A stretch of DNA of 11,915 nucleotides, from the NCBI GenBank assembly GCA_031414595.1, contig JANNVX010000108.1, positions 1-11,915 of the forward strand, written 5' to 3'. Numbering within the stretch: the first letter of the stretch is position 1; each line of letters starts with the position of its first letter. This stretch comes from Deinococcales bacterium (lineage in GTDB: Bacteria > Deinococcota > Deinococci > Deinococcales > JAAFIG01). Shown here in pieces: positions 1-6,000 of the stretch. A program made the position numbers.

Positions 1-3000
1 TTGCTCCTGAATCGGAAAAGTTGCATAGAACAGTGTTCTGTCCTTAAAGAAGTTCTGCTTGAGTTTTTGCAGTTCAACAATAAAGTATTCGCCATTTAAT
101 CCTTGGCAGTAAATATCGTAAATTGCTTTCCGGTCATTTTCACCTTTTGGTAATTGCTCAGGGTTCTTAAAACTTAAATCTTTGATTTGGGCAACCTCTG
201 GTAAAATGGAATTCAGAAAATCAATTAAGTGTGGTTTACTGGCTTCTTCGCCAAAGATTTTTTTGAATCCAAAATCTGTAAATGGATTGATGAAGGTCGT
301 GACCATGCCAAAATCGTAGCAGGGTGATGCTTATTTTCCTAGAGTAAAAACGCTTATTCTGCCTCGAGCGACACATCATATCTGCTGCTCGAATGAAAGC
401 TGTCTACACATCTAGTCTAATTATCAGACCCTTAGCTTGCCCTCGAGTATTCTCTTAGCCTTATGATAATTGCTGAAACTGGCACACTTAGAATTAAAAC
501 TGGCTTCTCGGAAATGTTCAAGGGCGGGGTGATTATGGATGTGGTCACACCAGACCAAGCCCGTATTGCCGAAGACGCTGGCGCAACGGCGGTTATGGCA
601 CTCGAGCGAGTCCCCGCCGATATTCGCCGTGATGGTGGGGTGGCGCGGATGTCTGACCCTGACATGATTGTGGGGATTATCGAAGCGGTGACAATTCCTG
701 TGATGGCAAAGTGCCGTATTGGGCATTTTGTCGAGGCACAAATTTTGCAAAGCCTTGGGGTGGATTTTATTGATGAATCCGAAGTCCTGACCCCAGCCGA
801 CAATGCTTACCATGTCAATAAACACGATTTCAAAGTGCCTTTTGTTTGTGGTAGCCGCAACCTTGGCGAAGCCCTGCGGCGGATTGGCGAAGGCGCAGCC
901 ATGATTCGCACCAAAGGCGAACCGGGGACTGGCGATGTGGTTGAAGCTGTCACCCATGCCCGTTTAATTGTTGGTGAAATTCGTAAAATTCAAGGCTTAC
1001 GCGAAGATGAACTAATGGCAGCCGCTAGAGATATGGCAGCCCCATATGAATTGGTGCGTTATGTCTGGGCAAATGGCAAACTGCCTGTGCCGAACTTTGC
1101 GGCTGGCGGAATTGCCACCCCTGCCGATGCTGCCCTGATGATGCAGTTAGGTATGGATGGTGTTTTCGTTGGTAGCGGTATTTTCAAAAGCGGCGACCCA
1201 ATTAAACGCGCTCAAGCGATTGTCAAAGCCACGACCCATTACAACGACCCAGACATGCTTGCCCAAGTTAGCCGTAATCTAGGCGAAGCGATGGTTGGCA
1301 TTCAAGTTGTGGCATTAACCCCAGAAGAAAAAATGGCTGTGCGGGGTTGGTGAGGAAGCGGGCAAAAGGCAAAGGTTTTTGCTTTCGCCTTTTGCCCTTT
1401 GCCTCCTGAAAGGAAGATATGAGAATTGGTGTTTTAGCCTTACAGGGTGCGTTTCGTGAACATCGCATTATGCTCGAGAGCCTTGGTTGCACAGTTACAG
1501 AAGTGCGTCTTCCTAAGCATCTCGAGGGCTTAGATGGAATTGTTTTTCCGGGCGGCGAAAGTACCACGATTGGTAAACTGATGGTTCATTACGGGTTTAT
1601 CGAAGCACTGACGGCGTATTACAAGAACGGCGGAGCGATTTTTGCGACCTGTGCTGGGGCAATTTTGCTGGCTTCCGAAATTGTTAGTTCTGAACAACCA
1701 AAGCTGGGTTTGCTCGAGATGCGGGTGAAGCGCAATGCTTTTGGGCGACAAGTGGATAGTTTCCAAACGCCACTAGCCGTAAAAGGGCTGGCGACACCCT
1801 TCCCAGCCCTTTTTATTCGAGCGCCAATTCTCGAGTCAGTCGGTGAGGGCGTGGAGGTATTGGCAGAATTTGAGCATCAGATTGTTTTGGCACGACAAGA
1901 TAGGCTTTTGGTCTCGAGTTTTCATCCCGAATTAACGTCTGACCCGCGTTTGCATCGGTTTTTTCTTAATTCAGTGGTGGGTTCGTAATTCTTTGTTAAA
2001 CTTGCCTATGCCTTCTCAACTCGAAACGCTGCAAGCCATCGAAAAGCGTTTAGAACAAAGTCTCGGAGCAGTAGGTAAGACTTGGGCTGAAAAAGTCTCG
2101 AGTTTGGAGTCGGTGCTGCCTTTGGTGCTGATTAAGCAGCTTCAAGCCCTGCCGCAACAAAGTGGCGAAGTATTTACCAAAAGTGCCGATTCGTGCCAAA
2201 CCCAATTGGCGCTTTTTGCAAGAAATGCTCATCCGATTGCCCAAGAAGGGGTCTGGACGGAAAGCCAACGCATCGAAGCTCGAGCCAAACAAGATGTTCG
2301 GGTACAGCGCCTTGGAAGCCAAAAAACCACGGTTGCCACAAAATTGGCTTGGTGGTTGCACGACACTCGAGCCGCTATTCCTAAACGAGCTTACGGCATC
2401 AGCCAAACTTGGCGTATTCCCATGACGATTGTGTTGGCGCTAGTCGGTGGTGTTCTTGGTTGGTTCTTGGCTGGTATTGGCGCAGCCGCCTTTGGGGTTC
2501 TGCTTTTGGGTACACTTGGCTTTGTCTTCTGGTCGGAAAATAACTTGGCACGCAGTATGTGGGCGCAAACTCGAGTTCTCGAGATTTTACTAGCAGTTTT
2601 TCGTGGAGCAATTGTGGTAGTTGGTTTTATCTTTGGGTTAGCGGTTGTTGCAATCGCGGCTTGGTTGATTGTTCGGTTCTGGAACGCTCGTTAGGCTCGA
2701 GTGCAAGGTGGGGCTACTCTTCGAGTGCAAGATAACCCTAATTTTGAATGCCTCAACCGTGATACTTTATACTACTCGCTCGAACAGCCAAACCGCTCGA
2801 GTAACCAGATTTAGGGGGATTCATGACACAAACAGCAACACAAATGGTGGACGCTTTCGAGAAAGCACGTAAATACAACCGAGCCGATGAAGCCATCGCT
2901 ATGGGTTTATATCCGTATTTCAAAGCCATTCAAAAACATGGTGGTGGCAGTGTTATCGTCGAGGGCGAAGAATATGTGCTAACTGGCAGCAACGATTACC

Positions 3001-6000
3001 TTGGACTAACCCAAGACCCGCGTATCCGTGAAGCCAGTAAAAAAGCAATTGACCAATACGGCACAAGCTGCACCGGCTCGAGGTTCTTAACTGGTACGCT
3101 CGAGATTCACGAAATTTTTGAACGTGAACTTGCCGAATTTGTCGGTAAAGAAGCCACGATTATTTTTGGGGCTGGATTTTTGGCGTGTGCCACCAGTGTG
3201 GTGGCGCTGGCGGCGCGGCATGACTTGGTGTATTTTGACCGCGAAAATCATGCCAGTTTAATAGATGGAGCGCGTTTAAGTTGGGCATGGGATAACTTAA
3301 AACGCTTTAAGCACAACGATGCCGCCGATTTAGAGCGGATGTTGGCTGCCGATGTCGGTAAACCCGGCGGGCGTTTGGTTTACACCGAAGGTGTGTTTAG
3401 CATGTCTGGGCATATTGGTACAGTCGATGAAGTGGCAGCCGTGGCCAAAAAGTATGGCGCTCGAGTCATTTGCGATGATGCCCACGCCCACGGAGTTTTA
3501 GGACCTCGAGGTGAAGGGGCGCATGTTCACTTTGGCATCGAAGACCAAGTGGATTTAGTGGTTGGTACATTTTCTAAGTCGTTTGCTTCAGTCGGTGGTT
3601 TTGTGGCTGGAGACCGTGATATTGTTGACTTTATTAAGCACACGGGTCGTCCATTTATTTTTAATGCGGCATTGCCCGCCCCAAGTGTGGCGGCAGCGCT
3701 CGAGGCACTGCGGATTATGCGTTCAGAACCGCATCACCGCGAGAACATGTGGAAAAACGTCAATTTTATGCGTTCTAACCTCTTAAATCTCGGTTTTGAT
3801 TTACTGGGTTCTAATAGCCCAATTATCCCAGTCATGGCGGGCGACCAAGACATGGCGATTCGTTTTTGGCGCGGGCTTTGGGACGCTAAAATTTTTACCA
3901 CCCCAAGTTTGCCGCCAGCCGTACCAAAAGACCAGTGCATTATTCGCACCAGTTACAACGGCGCTCACACCCAAGAACAACTCGAGAAAGCGCTTCACGC
4001 TTTTGAACATGTGGGACGGGCATTACAAATTATCAAATAAAAAAAGCGCGGCAGTTGCCGCGCTTTTTTGCTGTCTATCCGACCAAGCGGCGGCGGACGT
4101 TGGCACTGATAAAATCCAGTACATTGACCATTAAGACTACCAAGCCCACCAGAATAATCATTTGGTTGTACTTGCCGCTTCGCATTGTTTCTTGAATTAA
4201 GAACCCCACCCCGCCCGCCCCAACAAAACCAAGAATAATCGAAACCCGGAAATTGATTTCAAAGCGGTACAACGTATACGAGACAAAAAGTGGCAGCACT
4301 TGCGGCAGCACACCCCAACGAATAATGCTTGTGCCGGGCGCTCCAGATGCCTCGAGGGCTTCGATGGGTCCGCGTTCAGCGTTTTCAATGGCTTCGGAAT
4401 ACAACTTGCCTAAATCTGCCATGCTGTGAATGCCCATTGCCAATACCCCAGCCAGTGGTCCCAACCCCACTGCCGAAACAAAGACCAGTGCCAGAATTAG
4501 AGTATCCACGCCACGGTCAAGGTTATAAAAACCGCGCATGAGCGGGTAGACGATTCGTCCCCACCAGCTTTTTTCGGTTAAATTGCGAGCCGCTAAGAAA
4601 CTCGAGGGCAATGCCAGTATTGCTGCCAGAACAGTGCCAATCATGGCGGTGGCAATAGTGATCGTCATGGCTTTTAGCCCTTCAGATAAAATTGCGTTCC
4701 AGTCTGGTGGAACGGCTCTGCGTCCAAAGTCTTCGATAAATGGGAAGCCTTTGATAAAGCGTCCTAAGTCAAATTCCACGGCGTTAAAGCCAAAGCCAAG
4801 AATCGCAATAATCACGCCCAGCAATGCCCCAGATGCCAAGTCCCGTGTTTCAAGGGCAGCCATGCCGCGCCAAAAAAGAGCTGCACCACCAAGCAACATC
4901 AGAATTCCAAACAGTGCCAGTGTACCAAAACCATAAGCGGCTCGAGTTGGAAAAACCCGTCTAGCATTGGCTTCTCCAGCATCTCGCCCAATGCTGTAGC
5001 CTTTGGGCATCTCAAAGGTATTGCTGATTGTGCTTAGTGGCTCGAGGGTGGCAGAAGTTAAGCCGTAATCAATCCGTTGTTTTTGCAAAAATTCGCGTTT
5101 GCTGTACGCATCACGCACCGAGCGCCCAGCTTCACGTTCGGCATTCTGAGCAAATTCAAGGGTTTGTCCGCCCAGACTTTGGCTGTTTTTCGTGACTTCT
5201 TGGGCTTTGATTTTGGCAGCTTCCGCATCGGCAATGGCTTTTTCAGATGCCACCCACTCGGCGTTGATCCGTTGGCGTTCTTTGTTGTTAAATTCTAGGT
5301 CGGCAGTCCAGTCCTTGATTACCAAATTTTCTTGCCCTGGGGTTATCTTAACCACCACACGGTAATAATTGCGAAGTGCATCAAAAGTAATCGGGGCGGC
5401 ACTCGAGAATGTATACAAACCAACCCCGAACATCACCAGAGCAGAAATCACATAGCCATAAATCAGTTGTTTGGTTTTGAGCATCATCCGAGAAACCACC
5501 CAACCGACTGCACCAAAAAAAATTGGAATTAAGGTCTCGAGAACCCACGGTATGCTGCTCACACCAACCACGCTTTGACTCGAATTATAAAATGCCCAAA
5601 GTAGAACCAACACGGTAAAACCAGCCGCCATCCCTGTAATTCCAGTAACTTTGGCGTTGGGTTCTTTAGCAAAAACGGTGACCAGCACTGCCACCGCCAC
5701 AATAAAAATAAGCCAAAATTGTGGTTCGACAAAAGAAAATCCAAATGGTGTAGGCGCAAGCAAATGTCTCGAGTACGCTCCAGTTAATTGCGCCAAAGGA
5801 TGCACAAAAAAGACAATCAACGCCCCAATTGCTCCAGCCACCATTAAACGCCGAGCGCTACCTTGGGCGAACAGGGTTGCCGCACAAAGCAGCACCGCTA
5901 AAATAATATAGGTCAGAATCATATGCCCCCTAACCCTTTAGCCCGGCTCATAAATCCGCCACGCTACCCGCGTAAATTCGGTCAACTTCGGCATCGGTTA

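Follow-up and report, generated by a model that had tools for sequence, protein, structure and literature searches.

A serine palmitoyltransferase-clade gene and a predicted ceramide pathway in two families of the Deinococcales

The spt locus and its partner genes

The window, i.e., the whole stretch of DNA that was analyzed, comprises 11,915 nucleotides of contig JANNVX010000108.1 from the Deinococcales assembly GCA_031414595.1 (G000, the source genome), which belongs to an uncultured relative of Deinococcus. It harbors a gene for an alpha-oxoamine synthase of the serine palmitoyltransferase (Spt) clade, referred to as P0001, which is isolated in this genome, its partner genes being located on other contigs (C88 and C17). 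In a preliminary description these three genes were proposed to encode Spt, a bacterial ceramide synthase (bCerS) and a CerR-like reductase; the corresponding open reading frames are present, and their family matches agree with this proposal. The features are:

2823..4040, + strand: spt, a 405-amino-acid open reading frame without internal stop, encoding the serine palmitoyltransferase-clade alpha-oxoamine synthase P0001
4040..4069, no strand assigned: stem-loop of 13 pairs, preceded by an A run and followed by a T run, between the convergent spt and phnE
G000 C88:188917-190017, + strand: gene of the bCerS/YghO family, 366-amino-acid protein, assigned by homology
G000 C17:23691-24644, + strand: gene of a CerR-like extended SDR, 318 amino acids, assigned by matches to cluster reductases

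The stem-loop is terminator-like and probably usable from both sides, an interpretation based on its position and not on the number of such sites, of which the scan found 2, compared to 2.2 expected in shuffles. The genes pdxS and pdxT (PLP synthesis), found upstream of spt in the window, were left out of the system; no such link is seen beside spt in other genera. A contig scan gave matches in 8 close relatives only, all Deinococcales or Deinococcota MAGs.

The bCerS-like protein, present as a single copy in G000, aligns over its full length with two cluster proteins, E. coli YghO and the Sphingomonas protein (34% identity, 377-380 columns). The equal similarity to YghO had been raised as a doubt about the assignment, which is weakened by the description, in the available text of PMC9386255, of yghO as the candidate N-acyltransferase for ceramide (aca, ECD_02850) in the spt-acp-epi-aas cluster of E. 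coli itself. The best structural matches of the predicted model (pLDDT 92.1) are tandem GNATs, with a TM of about 0.6; no solved structure matching the bCerS profile was found.

The C17 SDR is the top match in G000 for four of five cluster-linked reference reductases, at 27-34% identity, but for the two proteobacterial references another G000 SDR, at C67:48187, gives nearly the same scores. An epimerase-SDR fusion on C67 reaches 172/400 bits with a 3-ketodihydrosphingosine reductase model, but four generic SDR models score higher.

Distribution and gene order across the order

Orthologs of Spt were found in 42 of the 121 genomes of the order (55-100% identity, E <= 7.7e-97), while 62 other genomes gave non-orthologous matches (E >= 2.5e-80, <= 41% identity) and 17/121 no match. 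A bCerS-like gene is present in exactly the same 42 genomes, both by single-protein search and with a 96-row profile (threshold E <= 0.001). Both genes are found in 19/19 genomes of the source family (f1) and in 23/27 of a second family (f2, by inference Trueperaceae; all family names are inferred), as compared to 0/26, 0/23 and 0/26 in f3, f4 and f5, respectively. The co-inheritance of Spt and bCerS in two families and their absence from three, originally seen among 61 genomes, is thereby recovered in a sample twice that size, with 0/75 outside the two families; the 42/42 co-occurrence is found among kin genomes and represents few independent events, not 42.

The Spt and bCerS trees each recover one clade composed of f1, f2 and Rubrobacter sequences. 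In a one-gene tree of RpoB, a pathway-negative, single-genus family is sister to f1, which points to loss there and suggests that the pathway was lost in this family (Deinococcus).

The C17-type SDR is present in 18/19 f1 genomes and in 0/75 of f3-f5. It is located directly behind bCerS in G060, precedes a flippase-like gene in G085 and precedes two GT28 genes in G061. The assignment as CerR, considered weak at the outset, is still limited by the low identity and the tie with C67, but its distribution along with the pathway and the linkage to bCerS in G060 ease this doubt.

Adjacency of spt and bCerS had been reported for all genomes of the second family; it holds in 21/23, but in G103 and G107 the two genes are on different contigs. 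The f2 gene order is mostly spt-bCerS-CPBP-SDR-GT28-flippase, where 22/23 positive genomes have an OleD-like SDR and a CPBP membrane protein instead of the C17-type reductase. These two components are found together in 22/22 genomes and, at the threshold used, never with a CerR-type SDR. The best NCBIfam model for the operon SDR is OleD (NF042422; 150.7 bits, far under the cut-off of 580), and its scores against the reductases of Sphingomonas and E. coli (32-73 bits) are no better than those of an unrelated SDR domain (68-89 bits), so that epi/CerR orthology is not supported. In the Atlas search the CPBP protein matched generic Rce1-like clusters only. No ortholog of the operon GT28, CPBP or OleD-like SDR was found in G000; a GT28 and flippase pair on its contig C4 was rejected as an operon ortholog, with an identity of 24% and a tier also seen in spt-negative genomes. 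The Spt and bCerS assignments of the preliminary description stand and that of CerR is plausible; the other reductase and the longer operon of the second family were overlooked there.

Phylogeny and active site of P0001

In a 32-row tree P0001 clusters with Spt sequences (support 100/99), apart from Kbl, BioF and HemA, where the "Spt" labels of the references stem mostly from gene context and not from assays of those strains. The Spt grouping is also obtained in a 60-row quick tree (91 SH-aLRT). AU tests, applied to the 32-row subset that leaves out 28 rows (including the long-branch Bernardetia, Methylocystis, G036a and Priestia), reject grouping of P0001 with Kbl (p-AU 0.008), Thermus-type AONS/KBL (0.0003) and BioF (0.00004). 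The best PDB match is S. multivorum SPT at 346 bits, followed by an AONS/KBL enzyme at 270 bits. The best NCBIfam model is SerpalmtaseCFB, but P0001 falls under the curated cut-off in all three Spt models (424.5/640, 353.7/500 and 284.5/670 bits). Because these models are lineage-specific, the low scores bar P0001 from those three subfamilies, not from Spt function.

These data bear on the question of whether P0001 could have a housekeeping role, as Kbl in threonine catabolism or as BioF for biotin, in which case co-occurrence with the GNAT gene would reflect shared ancestry. Such a role would fit with P0001 being the sole alpha-oxoamine synthase identified by tblastn in G000 (94% complete), with several database names, which read "8-amino-7-oxononanoate synthase", and with the PDB names of Thermus-type enzymes, which denote bifunctional AONS/KBL. 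However, both groupings are rejected by the AU tests, and P0001 harbors VGTFSKSF at residues 247-254 instead of the TLGKA, TLSKA or TFGKG of Kbl and BioF rows. Furthermore, f2 genomes possess a separate true Kbl alongside the Spt ortholog, which is in an operon with bCerS in 21/23 of them, BioB was over the cut-off in 0/5 f1 genomes searched, and neither BioD nor BioB was matched in G000. A housekeeping function is therefore highly improbable.

The PLP and substrate-site residues defined for S. multivorum SPT in the available text of PMC10196870 map in P0001 to N57, G85, S86, F88, H143, S193, D218, H221, T249, S251 and K252. These residues and the GTFSKS motif are invariant in 121/121 aligned relatives, except for F88 and the final S (kept in 118 each), i.e., the PLP residues His/Asp/His/Thr/Lys (H143, D218, H221, T249 and K252) are kept in all 121 rows. 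GTFSKS is termed SPT-characteristic in the same available text, but GTFSK is not exclusive to Spt as it is also found in two rows outside the Spt cluster (G036a and Methylocystis). The P0001 clade differs from the reference Spts in having A117 for Thr and T90 for Asn, C122 replaces an Asn that is kept by nearly all other rows, and the f1 Spts have N281 in place of Ser273, a PLP-phosphate anchor. Because of these departures the substrate may differ; according to the part of PMC13692747 that is available, substrate choice in this superfamily is not readable from a few residues.

With the same architecture, a sphingolipid-like product could, for example, be built on a different amino acid, either Ala or Gly, giving 1-deoxy bases, or a larger one. 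The clade-wide changes near the PLP/substrate site and the scores under the Spt equivalog cut-offs are consistent with this option, as are the cysteate-using relatives in the superfamily (PMC13692747, available part) and the 1-deoxy and lysine forms from bacteria-rich waters (PMC11334938). On the other hand, the serine-site contacts of S. multivorum SPT correspond to N57, G85 and S86, all of which are invariant. As a match to P0001, the cysteate enzyme 28eh reaches 239 bits, far short of the 346 bits of SPT, and the GT28 of the f2 operon would suit an acceptor with a 1-hydroxyl, a group absent from 1-deoxy bases. Use of an amino acid other than serine is thus considered unlikely.

A predicted ceramide pathway and its implications

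The observed identity, clade, distribution and linkage of the gene make it likely that P0001 catalyzes the first step of a bacterial route to ceramide. Here, 3-ketosphinganine would be formed from L-serine and a long-chain acyl thioester by the PLP enzyme Spt. Its amine would be acylated with a second chain by the tandem-GNAT bCerS (C88), and reduction of the 3-keto group by the CerR-type SDR (C17) would yield dihydroceramide for the cell envelope. The acyl donor in G000 would be acyl-CoA rather than a dedicated ACP because a search for an AcpR-like gene in this genome gave no match. The pathway would be encoded by three scattered genes in f1, as in Bacteroidota, and by an operon in f2, where the OleD-like SDR would most likely perform the reduction, the GT28 would add a sugar and the flippase-like protein would move the lipid. 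The f2 operon hence predicts a glycosphingolipid, probably a glycosylceramide.

Alternatively, the genes might produce the alkylamine or long-chain diol backbones known from Deinococcus-Thermus lipids. Amide-linked alkylamine phosphoglycolipids are found in the phylum (PMC3111992, available text), and 1,2-diols occur in Truepera along with glycolipids that are still uncharacterised (PMC3072082, available text). However, these texts, as far as available, assign the alkylamine lipids and diols to Thermus, Meiothermus and Deinococcus. The families taken to hold these genera (names inferred) have the genes in 0/75 genomes, which leaves this explanation with very little probability.

The ceramide pathway of Caulobacter crescentus, composed of Spt, bCerS and CerR, was reportedly described by Olea-Ozuna (2021) and Stankeviciute (2022). 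Accounts of it are found in PMC11087976 and in the available text of PMC9386255. Candidates for all three enzyme types are present in G000, where Spt falls inside the Spt clade. In contrast to the Caulobacter system, G000 is without AcpR next to spt, the f1 genes are scattered, the G000 Spt belongs to a distinct subclade with A117/C122/T90, and f2 is mostly without a CerR-type SDR. The Bacteroidota Spt (Sphingobacterium multivorum, PDB 8guh/3a2b; NCBIfam NF047600) offers the closest solved structure and curated model and shares with P0001 the GTFSKS motif, the YPYF and CxGSRFL segments and unlinked genes, but P0001 scores below its cut-off (424.5/640 bits) and the sister placement is without support in the 32-row tree.

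A putative ceramide cluster, spt-bCerS-SDR-LTA-synthase family, is found on plasmid 1 of Rubrobacter radiotolerans RSPS-4 (NZ_CP007515.1, RRADSPS_RS14055-14070). Its Spt and bCerS are 56% and 41.5% identical, respectively, to the G000 proteins and both nest in the f1+f2 clade; the host is, however, monoderm, and a CerR-type SDR and an LTA-synthase-family gene replace CPBP, GT28 and flippase. Many Rubrobacteraceae and Actinomycetota proteins are 74-79% identical to the R. radiotolerans RSPS-4 protein, and the spt-bCerS-SDR trio also occurs in Rubrobacter, Streptomyces and Aureispira (named records). In a literature search on Rubrobacter, sphingolipid was unmentioned among the matches listed. 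By analogy, the name of OleD, 2-alkyl-3-oxoalkanoate reductase, would imply 3-keto reduction on a two-tailed lipid, as 3-keto-dihydroceramide needs, but the f2 SDR resides in the spt-bCerS operon and not in an ole cluster.

A sphingolipid as a general replacement of lipid A across the families was ruled out, with LpxC in 52/121 genomes, including G000 and spt-negative ones; matches to LpxB were weak and partial. The lpxC gene is absent from G001, G056 and G103. A broader scenario can be put forward tentatively, with more doubt than confidence. A (glyco)sphingolipid pathway would have been present in the ancestor of Trueperaceae, f1 and Deinococcus and lost in Deinococcus. In most Trueperaceae, CerR would have been displaced by an OleD-like reductase with CPBP, in an operon with GT28 and flippase that would constitute an undescribed route, the module would be common to the radiation-resistant Rubrobacter, and in the three genomes without lpxC the lipid of the outer leaflet may, as in Sphingomonas, be a glycosphingolipid.

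The Deinococcota have a textbook unusual outer membrane, and knowledge of their lipids comes almost entirely from Deinococcus and Thermus types. A literature search for sphingolipids in Deinococcota or Truepera, with the taxon lists of published predictions outside its scope, returned no such report, and no lipid data for ceramide in these organisms were found in the literature search. With predictions of the ceramide pathway already extending to about 40 phyla (PMC11334938), a further lineage remains an incremental gain until the lipid or the new parts are demonstrated. The predicted gene set would add such a lineage, i.e., two of five Deinococcales families, to a widespread pathway, while the candidate non-CerR reductase and the CPBP protein of the f2 operon would be new parts of bacterial sphingolipid synthesis, and three-gene screens requiring CerR would miss f2-type genomes. 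If the proposed pathway is correct, the uncharacterised glycolipids of Truepera (PMC3072082, available text) would gain a candidate structure and an operon, two Deinococcota families would have ceramides, and Deinococcus would be the derived, reduced case.

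Identity of the spt product

The spt gene encodes the 405-residue protein P0001 and lies in a genome of 4.49 Mb (120 contigs, 94% complete), where its surroundings are as follows:

463-1988: pdxS and pdxT (PLP synthase), both above cut-off; the PLP-dependent Spt is encoded two genes downstream
Upstream side of spt, behind pdxS/pdxT: a 233-aa gene with no Pfam or NCBIfam match
2823-4040, + strand: spt, a single open frame of 405 aa
4040-4069: a stem-loop at the 3' end of spt
Other side of spt, convergent to it: the pair phnC/phnE
7873-9354: an AAA ATPase, SpoVK/EccA/CbbX-like, with an N-terminal extension of 200 aa

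No pdxS/pdxT pair adjoining spt was seen in other genera. The close relatives at the spt locus are titled Deinococcales or Deinococcota MAGs in 8 of 8 loci, and the gene is native to the genome because all 18 other genomes of its family (f1) hold orthologues at 72-100% identity.

P0001 is the sole alpha-oxoamine synthase found in this genome, which invites a reading as one of the sister enzymes Kbl or BioF. The probability of such an assignment is small. The top solved relative is the SPT of Sphingobacterium multivorum (346 bits; runner-up an AONS/KBL enzyme, 270 bits), and the top NCBIfam model is that for Bacteroidota Spt (424.5 bits, below the cut-off of 640). In a 32-row tree, the P0001 clade (ten rows, 100/100) groups at 100/99 with seven references that are Spt or come from spt clusters; a 60-row quick tree yielded the same grouping (91 SH-aLRT). 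The Spt labels in these trees derive mostly from gene context in named records; the only assayed enzymes are the S. multivorum structure and, from the part of PMC9386255 used here, the E. coli BL21 enzyme, and neither exact sequence is among the rows. Placement of the P0001 clade with Kbl (p-AU 0.008), Thermus-type AONS/KBL (p-AU 0.0003) or BioF (p-AU 0.00004) was rejected in the 32-row tree. BioB and BioD had no match in the source genome, and BioB was below cut-off in five of five f1 genomes, which counts against BioF; the presence of a separate Kbl in several genomes of the second family (f2) counts against a Kbl reading of the Spt orthologue.

The active-site residues of S. multivorum SPT described in excerpts of PMC10196870 map in P0001 to N57, G85, S86, H143, S193, D218, H221, T249, S251 and K252. 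None of the ten varies across the 121 aligned rows (P0001 plus the 120 hits closest to it), and P0001 carries the motif GTFSKS. What counts against a plain Spt reading is that positions which are Thr, Asn and Asn in most references are A117, C122 and T90 in the P0001 clade, the Asn equivalent to C122 presumably being a PLP contact; f1 also has N281 in place of Ser273. A related lipid formed from another amino acid is thus conceivable, and we consider it improbable; according to parts of PMC13692747, a few residues do not fix substrate choice in this superfamily. Judged from the sequences, the P0001 pathway quite probably makes a serine ceramide.

Co-occurrence with bCerS and a candidate reductase

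The two further genes named in the preliminary description proved real, i.e., C88:188917-190017 encodes the 366-aa bCerS-like protein P0002 and C17:23691-24644 a 318-aa extended SDR. Over its full length, P0002 shares 34% identity with E. coli YghO and with the N-acetyltransferase of a Sphingomonas spt region; the figure is 41.5% for a Rubrobacter protein and 42% for myxobacterial ones. The likeness to YghO had been held to weaken the bCerS call, an objection that falls away because yghO itself belongs to the E. coli spt cluster, where it adjoins aas, an epimerase gene, acp and spt. In parts of PMC9386255, yghO (ECD_02850) and Caulobacter CC_1154 are listed as the aca gene of dihydroceramide synthesis. 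The predicted structure of P0002 (pLDDT 92.1; input of 96 aligned rows drawn from 121 sequences plus the query) matches tandem GNATs.

A search of 121 genomes of the order with P0001 yielded an upper tier of 42 genomes (E <= 7.7e-97, 55-100% identity; the match in G030 is partial), a lower tier of 62 (E >= 2.5e-80, <= 41% identity) and no match in 17. P0002 was found in the same 42, both by single protein and by profile, so that the co-inheritance proposed from a smaller sample holds. Both genes occur in 19/19 genomes of f1, 23/27 of f2, 0/26 of f3, 0/23 of f4 and 0/26 of f5; the four f2 genomes that lack them (G006, G021, G036 and G066) are 95-100% complete. Because these genomes are kin, the pattern counts as a few gains or losses. 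Family f2 is probably Trueperaceae, since proteins so named fall in the same 57-60% identity band, and f3 would be Deinococcus, since its 26 genomes form one genus and, like the D. radiodurans control, lack LpxC. Adjacency of the two genes, previously described for all f2 genomes that carry them, was found in 21 of 23; they adjoin in no f1 genome and are 0.9 Mb apart in the single-contig G025.

Other alpha-oxoamine synthases were also seen. G036 encodes a different one with GTFSKS (L118:1263-2633), and on its contig C11 weaker SDR and GT28 matches lie side by side. In two f1 genomes (G025, L123:1255-2595; G005, L124), an enzyme that by its motifs we take to be 5-aminolevulinate-synthase-like lies directly behind a uroporphyrinogen-decarboxylase-like gene; if it makes 5-aminolevulinate, this C4 haem route would be unusual in Deinococcota.

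Four cluster reductases (Sphingomonas, Rubrobacter, Streptomyces and Aureispira) have the C17 SDR as their top match in the source genome, and for that of E. coli it is a narrow second; its identity to the reference cluster reductases is 27-34%. At E <= 1e-30 it is found in 19 of 121 genomes, i.e., 18/19 of f1 (the exception is 57% complete), the f2 genome G061 (a weak match) and none in f3-f5. The gene lies directly behind bCerS in G060, before a flippase-like gene in G085 and before two GT28 genes in G061. Distribution and linkage, while no proof, raise the formerly weak assignment, such that the C17 SDR is likely a CerR-type reductase.

The operon of the second family

Absent from the preliminary description is a longer run around spt in f2, read in 16 genomes (20 stretches). 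It opens with spt and bCerS, which are followed by genes for a membrane protein of the CPBP/Rce1 type, for an extended SDR and for a glycosyltransferase (GT28, MGDG-synthase-like); some genomes then have UDP-galactopyranose mutase, and a flippase-like gene (LPG_synthase_TM) also belongs to the run. By coordinates, the first four are consecutive in 20 of 23 positive f2 genomes, and GT28 comes next in 18 of 23. Strong GT28 matches (E < 1e-50) occur in 23/23 positive f2 and 4/19 f1 genomes, the source genome being without one. The CPBP protein, between bCerS and the SDR (L062:12119-12847; L070:11494-12216), weakly matches a myxosortase-type model (70/200 bits).

The operon SDR is not CerR-type (32-73 bits against proteobacterial reductases); its best model is OleD (150.7/580 bits). 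At E < 1e-100 it occurs in 22 of 121 genomes, with five more at 33-40% identity, and the CPBP protein is found in the same 22, all of them spt-positive f2 and none f1. Among the positive f2 genomes, only G061 lacks these two, and only G061 has a CerR-type SDR. This mutually exclusive occurrence suggests that the OleD-like SDR takes the role of CerR in f2.

Glycosyltransferases are also found elsewhere. A source-genome cluster (C67:4427-9517, L091) of GT2, flippase-like, GT4 and a 602-aa epimerase-SDR fusion may belong to glycolipid modification; in G041, a fusion 45% identical to this one, plus GT4, directly follows the sphingolipid operon. In G005, a genus-mate, three GT28 (one of the operon type), two GT2 and two flippase-like genes (C8, L153:6593-14577) suggest a richer glycolipid decoration than that of the source genome.

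Lipid A genes, history and the proposed pathway

Deinococcota are usually said to lack LPS. LpxC was found in 52 of 121 genomes (f1 17/19, f2 23/27, f3 0/26, f4 2/23, f5 10/26), and therefore the sphingolipid as a general lipid A substitute in the order was rejected. Neither control (T. thermophilus, D. radiodurans) gave an LpxC match, nor did the spt-positive f2 genomes G001, G056 and G103 (96-99% complete). The source-genome LpxC (C100:28202-28960, minus strand; L143:10203-10961) clears the Pfam threshold, and its gene lies behind one for a hexapeptide-repeat (LpxD-like) protein. Of five genomes tested for LptF/G, the four with LpxC have a third copy and G001 does not; LpxB matches are weak. 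By sequence, putative lipid A genes are present in part of the phylum.

In both the Spt and the bCerS tree, f1 and f2 form a single clade together with Rubrobacter radiotolerans, a cultured monoderm with a cluster of spt, bCerS, SDR and an LTA-synthase-family gene on plasmid 1 (NZ_CP007515.1; L096:8707-14299); the last could add a phosphoglycerol-type head group. Many Rubrobacteraceae/Actinomycetota proteins are 74-79% identical to R. radiotolerans Spt, and a Lentzea protein is nested inside the f1 Spt group. An RpoB tree (20 genomes of the order and E. coli) joins f1 and f3 as sisters (97 SH-aLRT) and nests two negative f2 genomes among positive ones (92); f1 and f2 as a single clade are barely rejected (p-AU 0.039). 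The simplest reading of this single marker gene, a thin basis, is that the ancestor shared by f1, f2 and f3 had the pathway and that f3 lost it; alternatively, transfer may have carried it between f1 and f2 early on.

In the scheme outlined in parts of PMC11087976, Spt supplies a 3-keto base, to which bCerS adds an acyl chain and which CerR reduces; which of these two reactions comes first is debated there. By analogy, the same steps would operate in the source genome, with a general acyl donor because no AcpR-like gene matched there; the f2 product would be glycosylated. There is little probability that the genes make the known alkylamine or diol lipids, which excerpts of PMC3111992 and PMC3072082, respectively, place in genera where these genes were not found here. 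According to parts of PMC11334938, a 2022 screen spanned 9 phyla and potential producers now extend to 40; its main text holds no word beginning "deinococc", and its supplement may bear on the claim for Deinococcota. The titles and abstract openings searched, which cover few subscription papers, report neither sphingolipids nor these genes in the phylum. The identification of this ceramide gene set as a further member of a known pathway is well supported, and f2 possibly holds a new variant of it.
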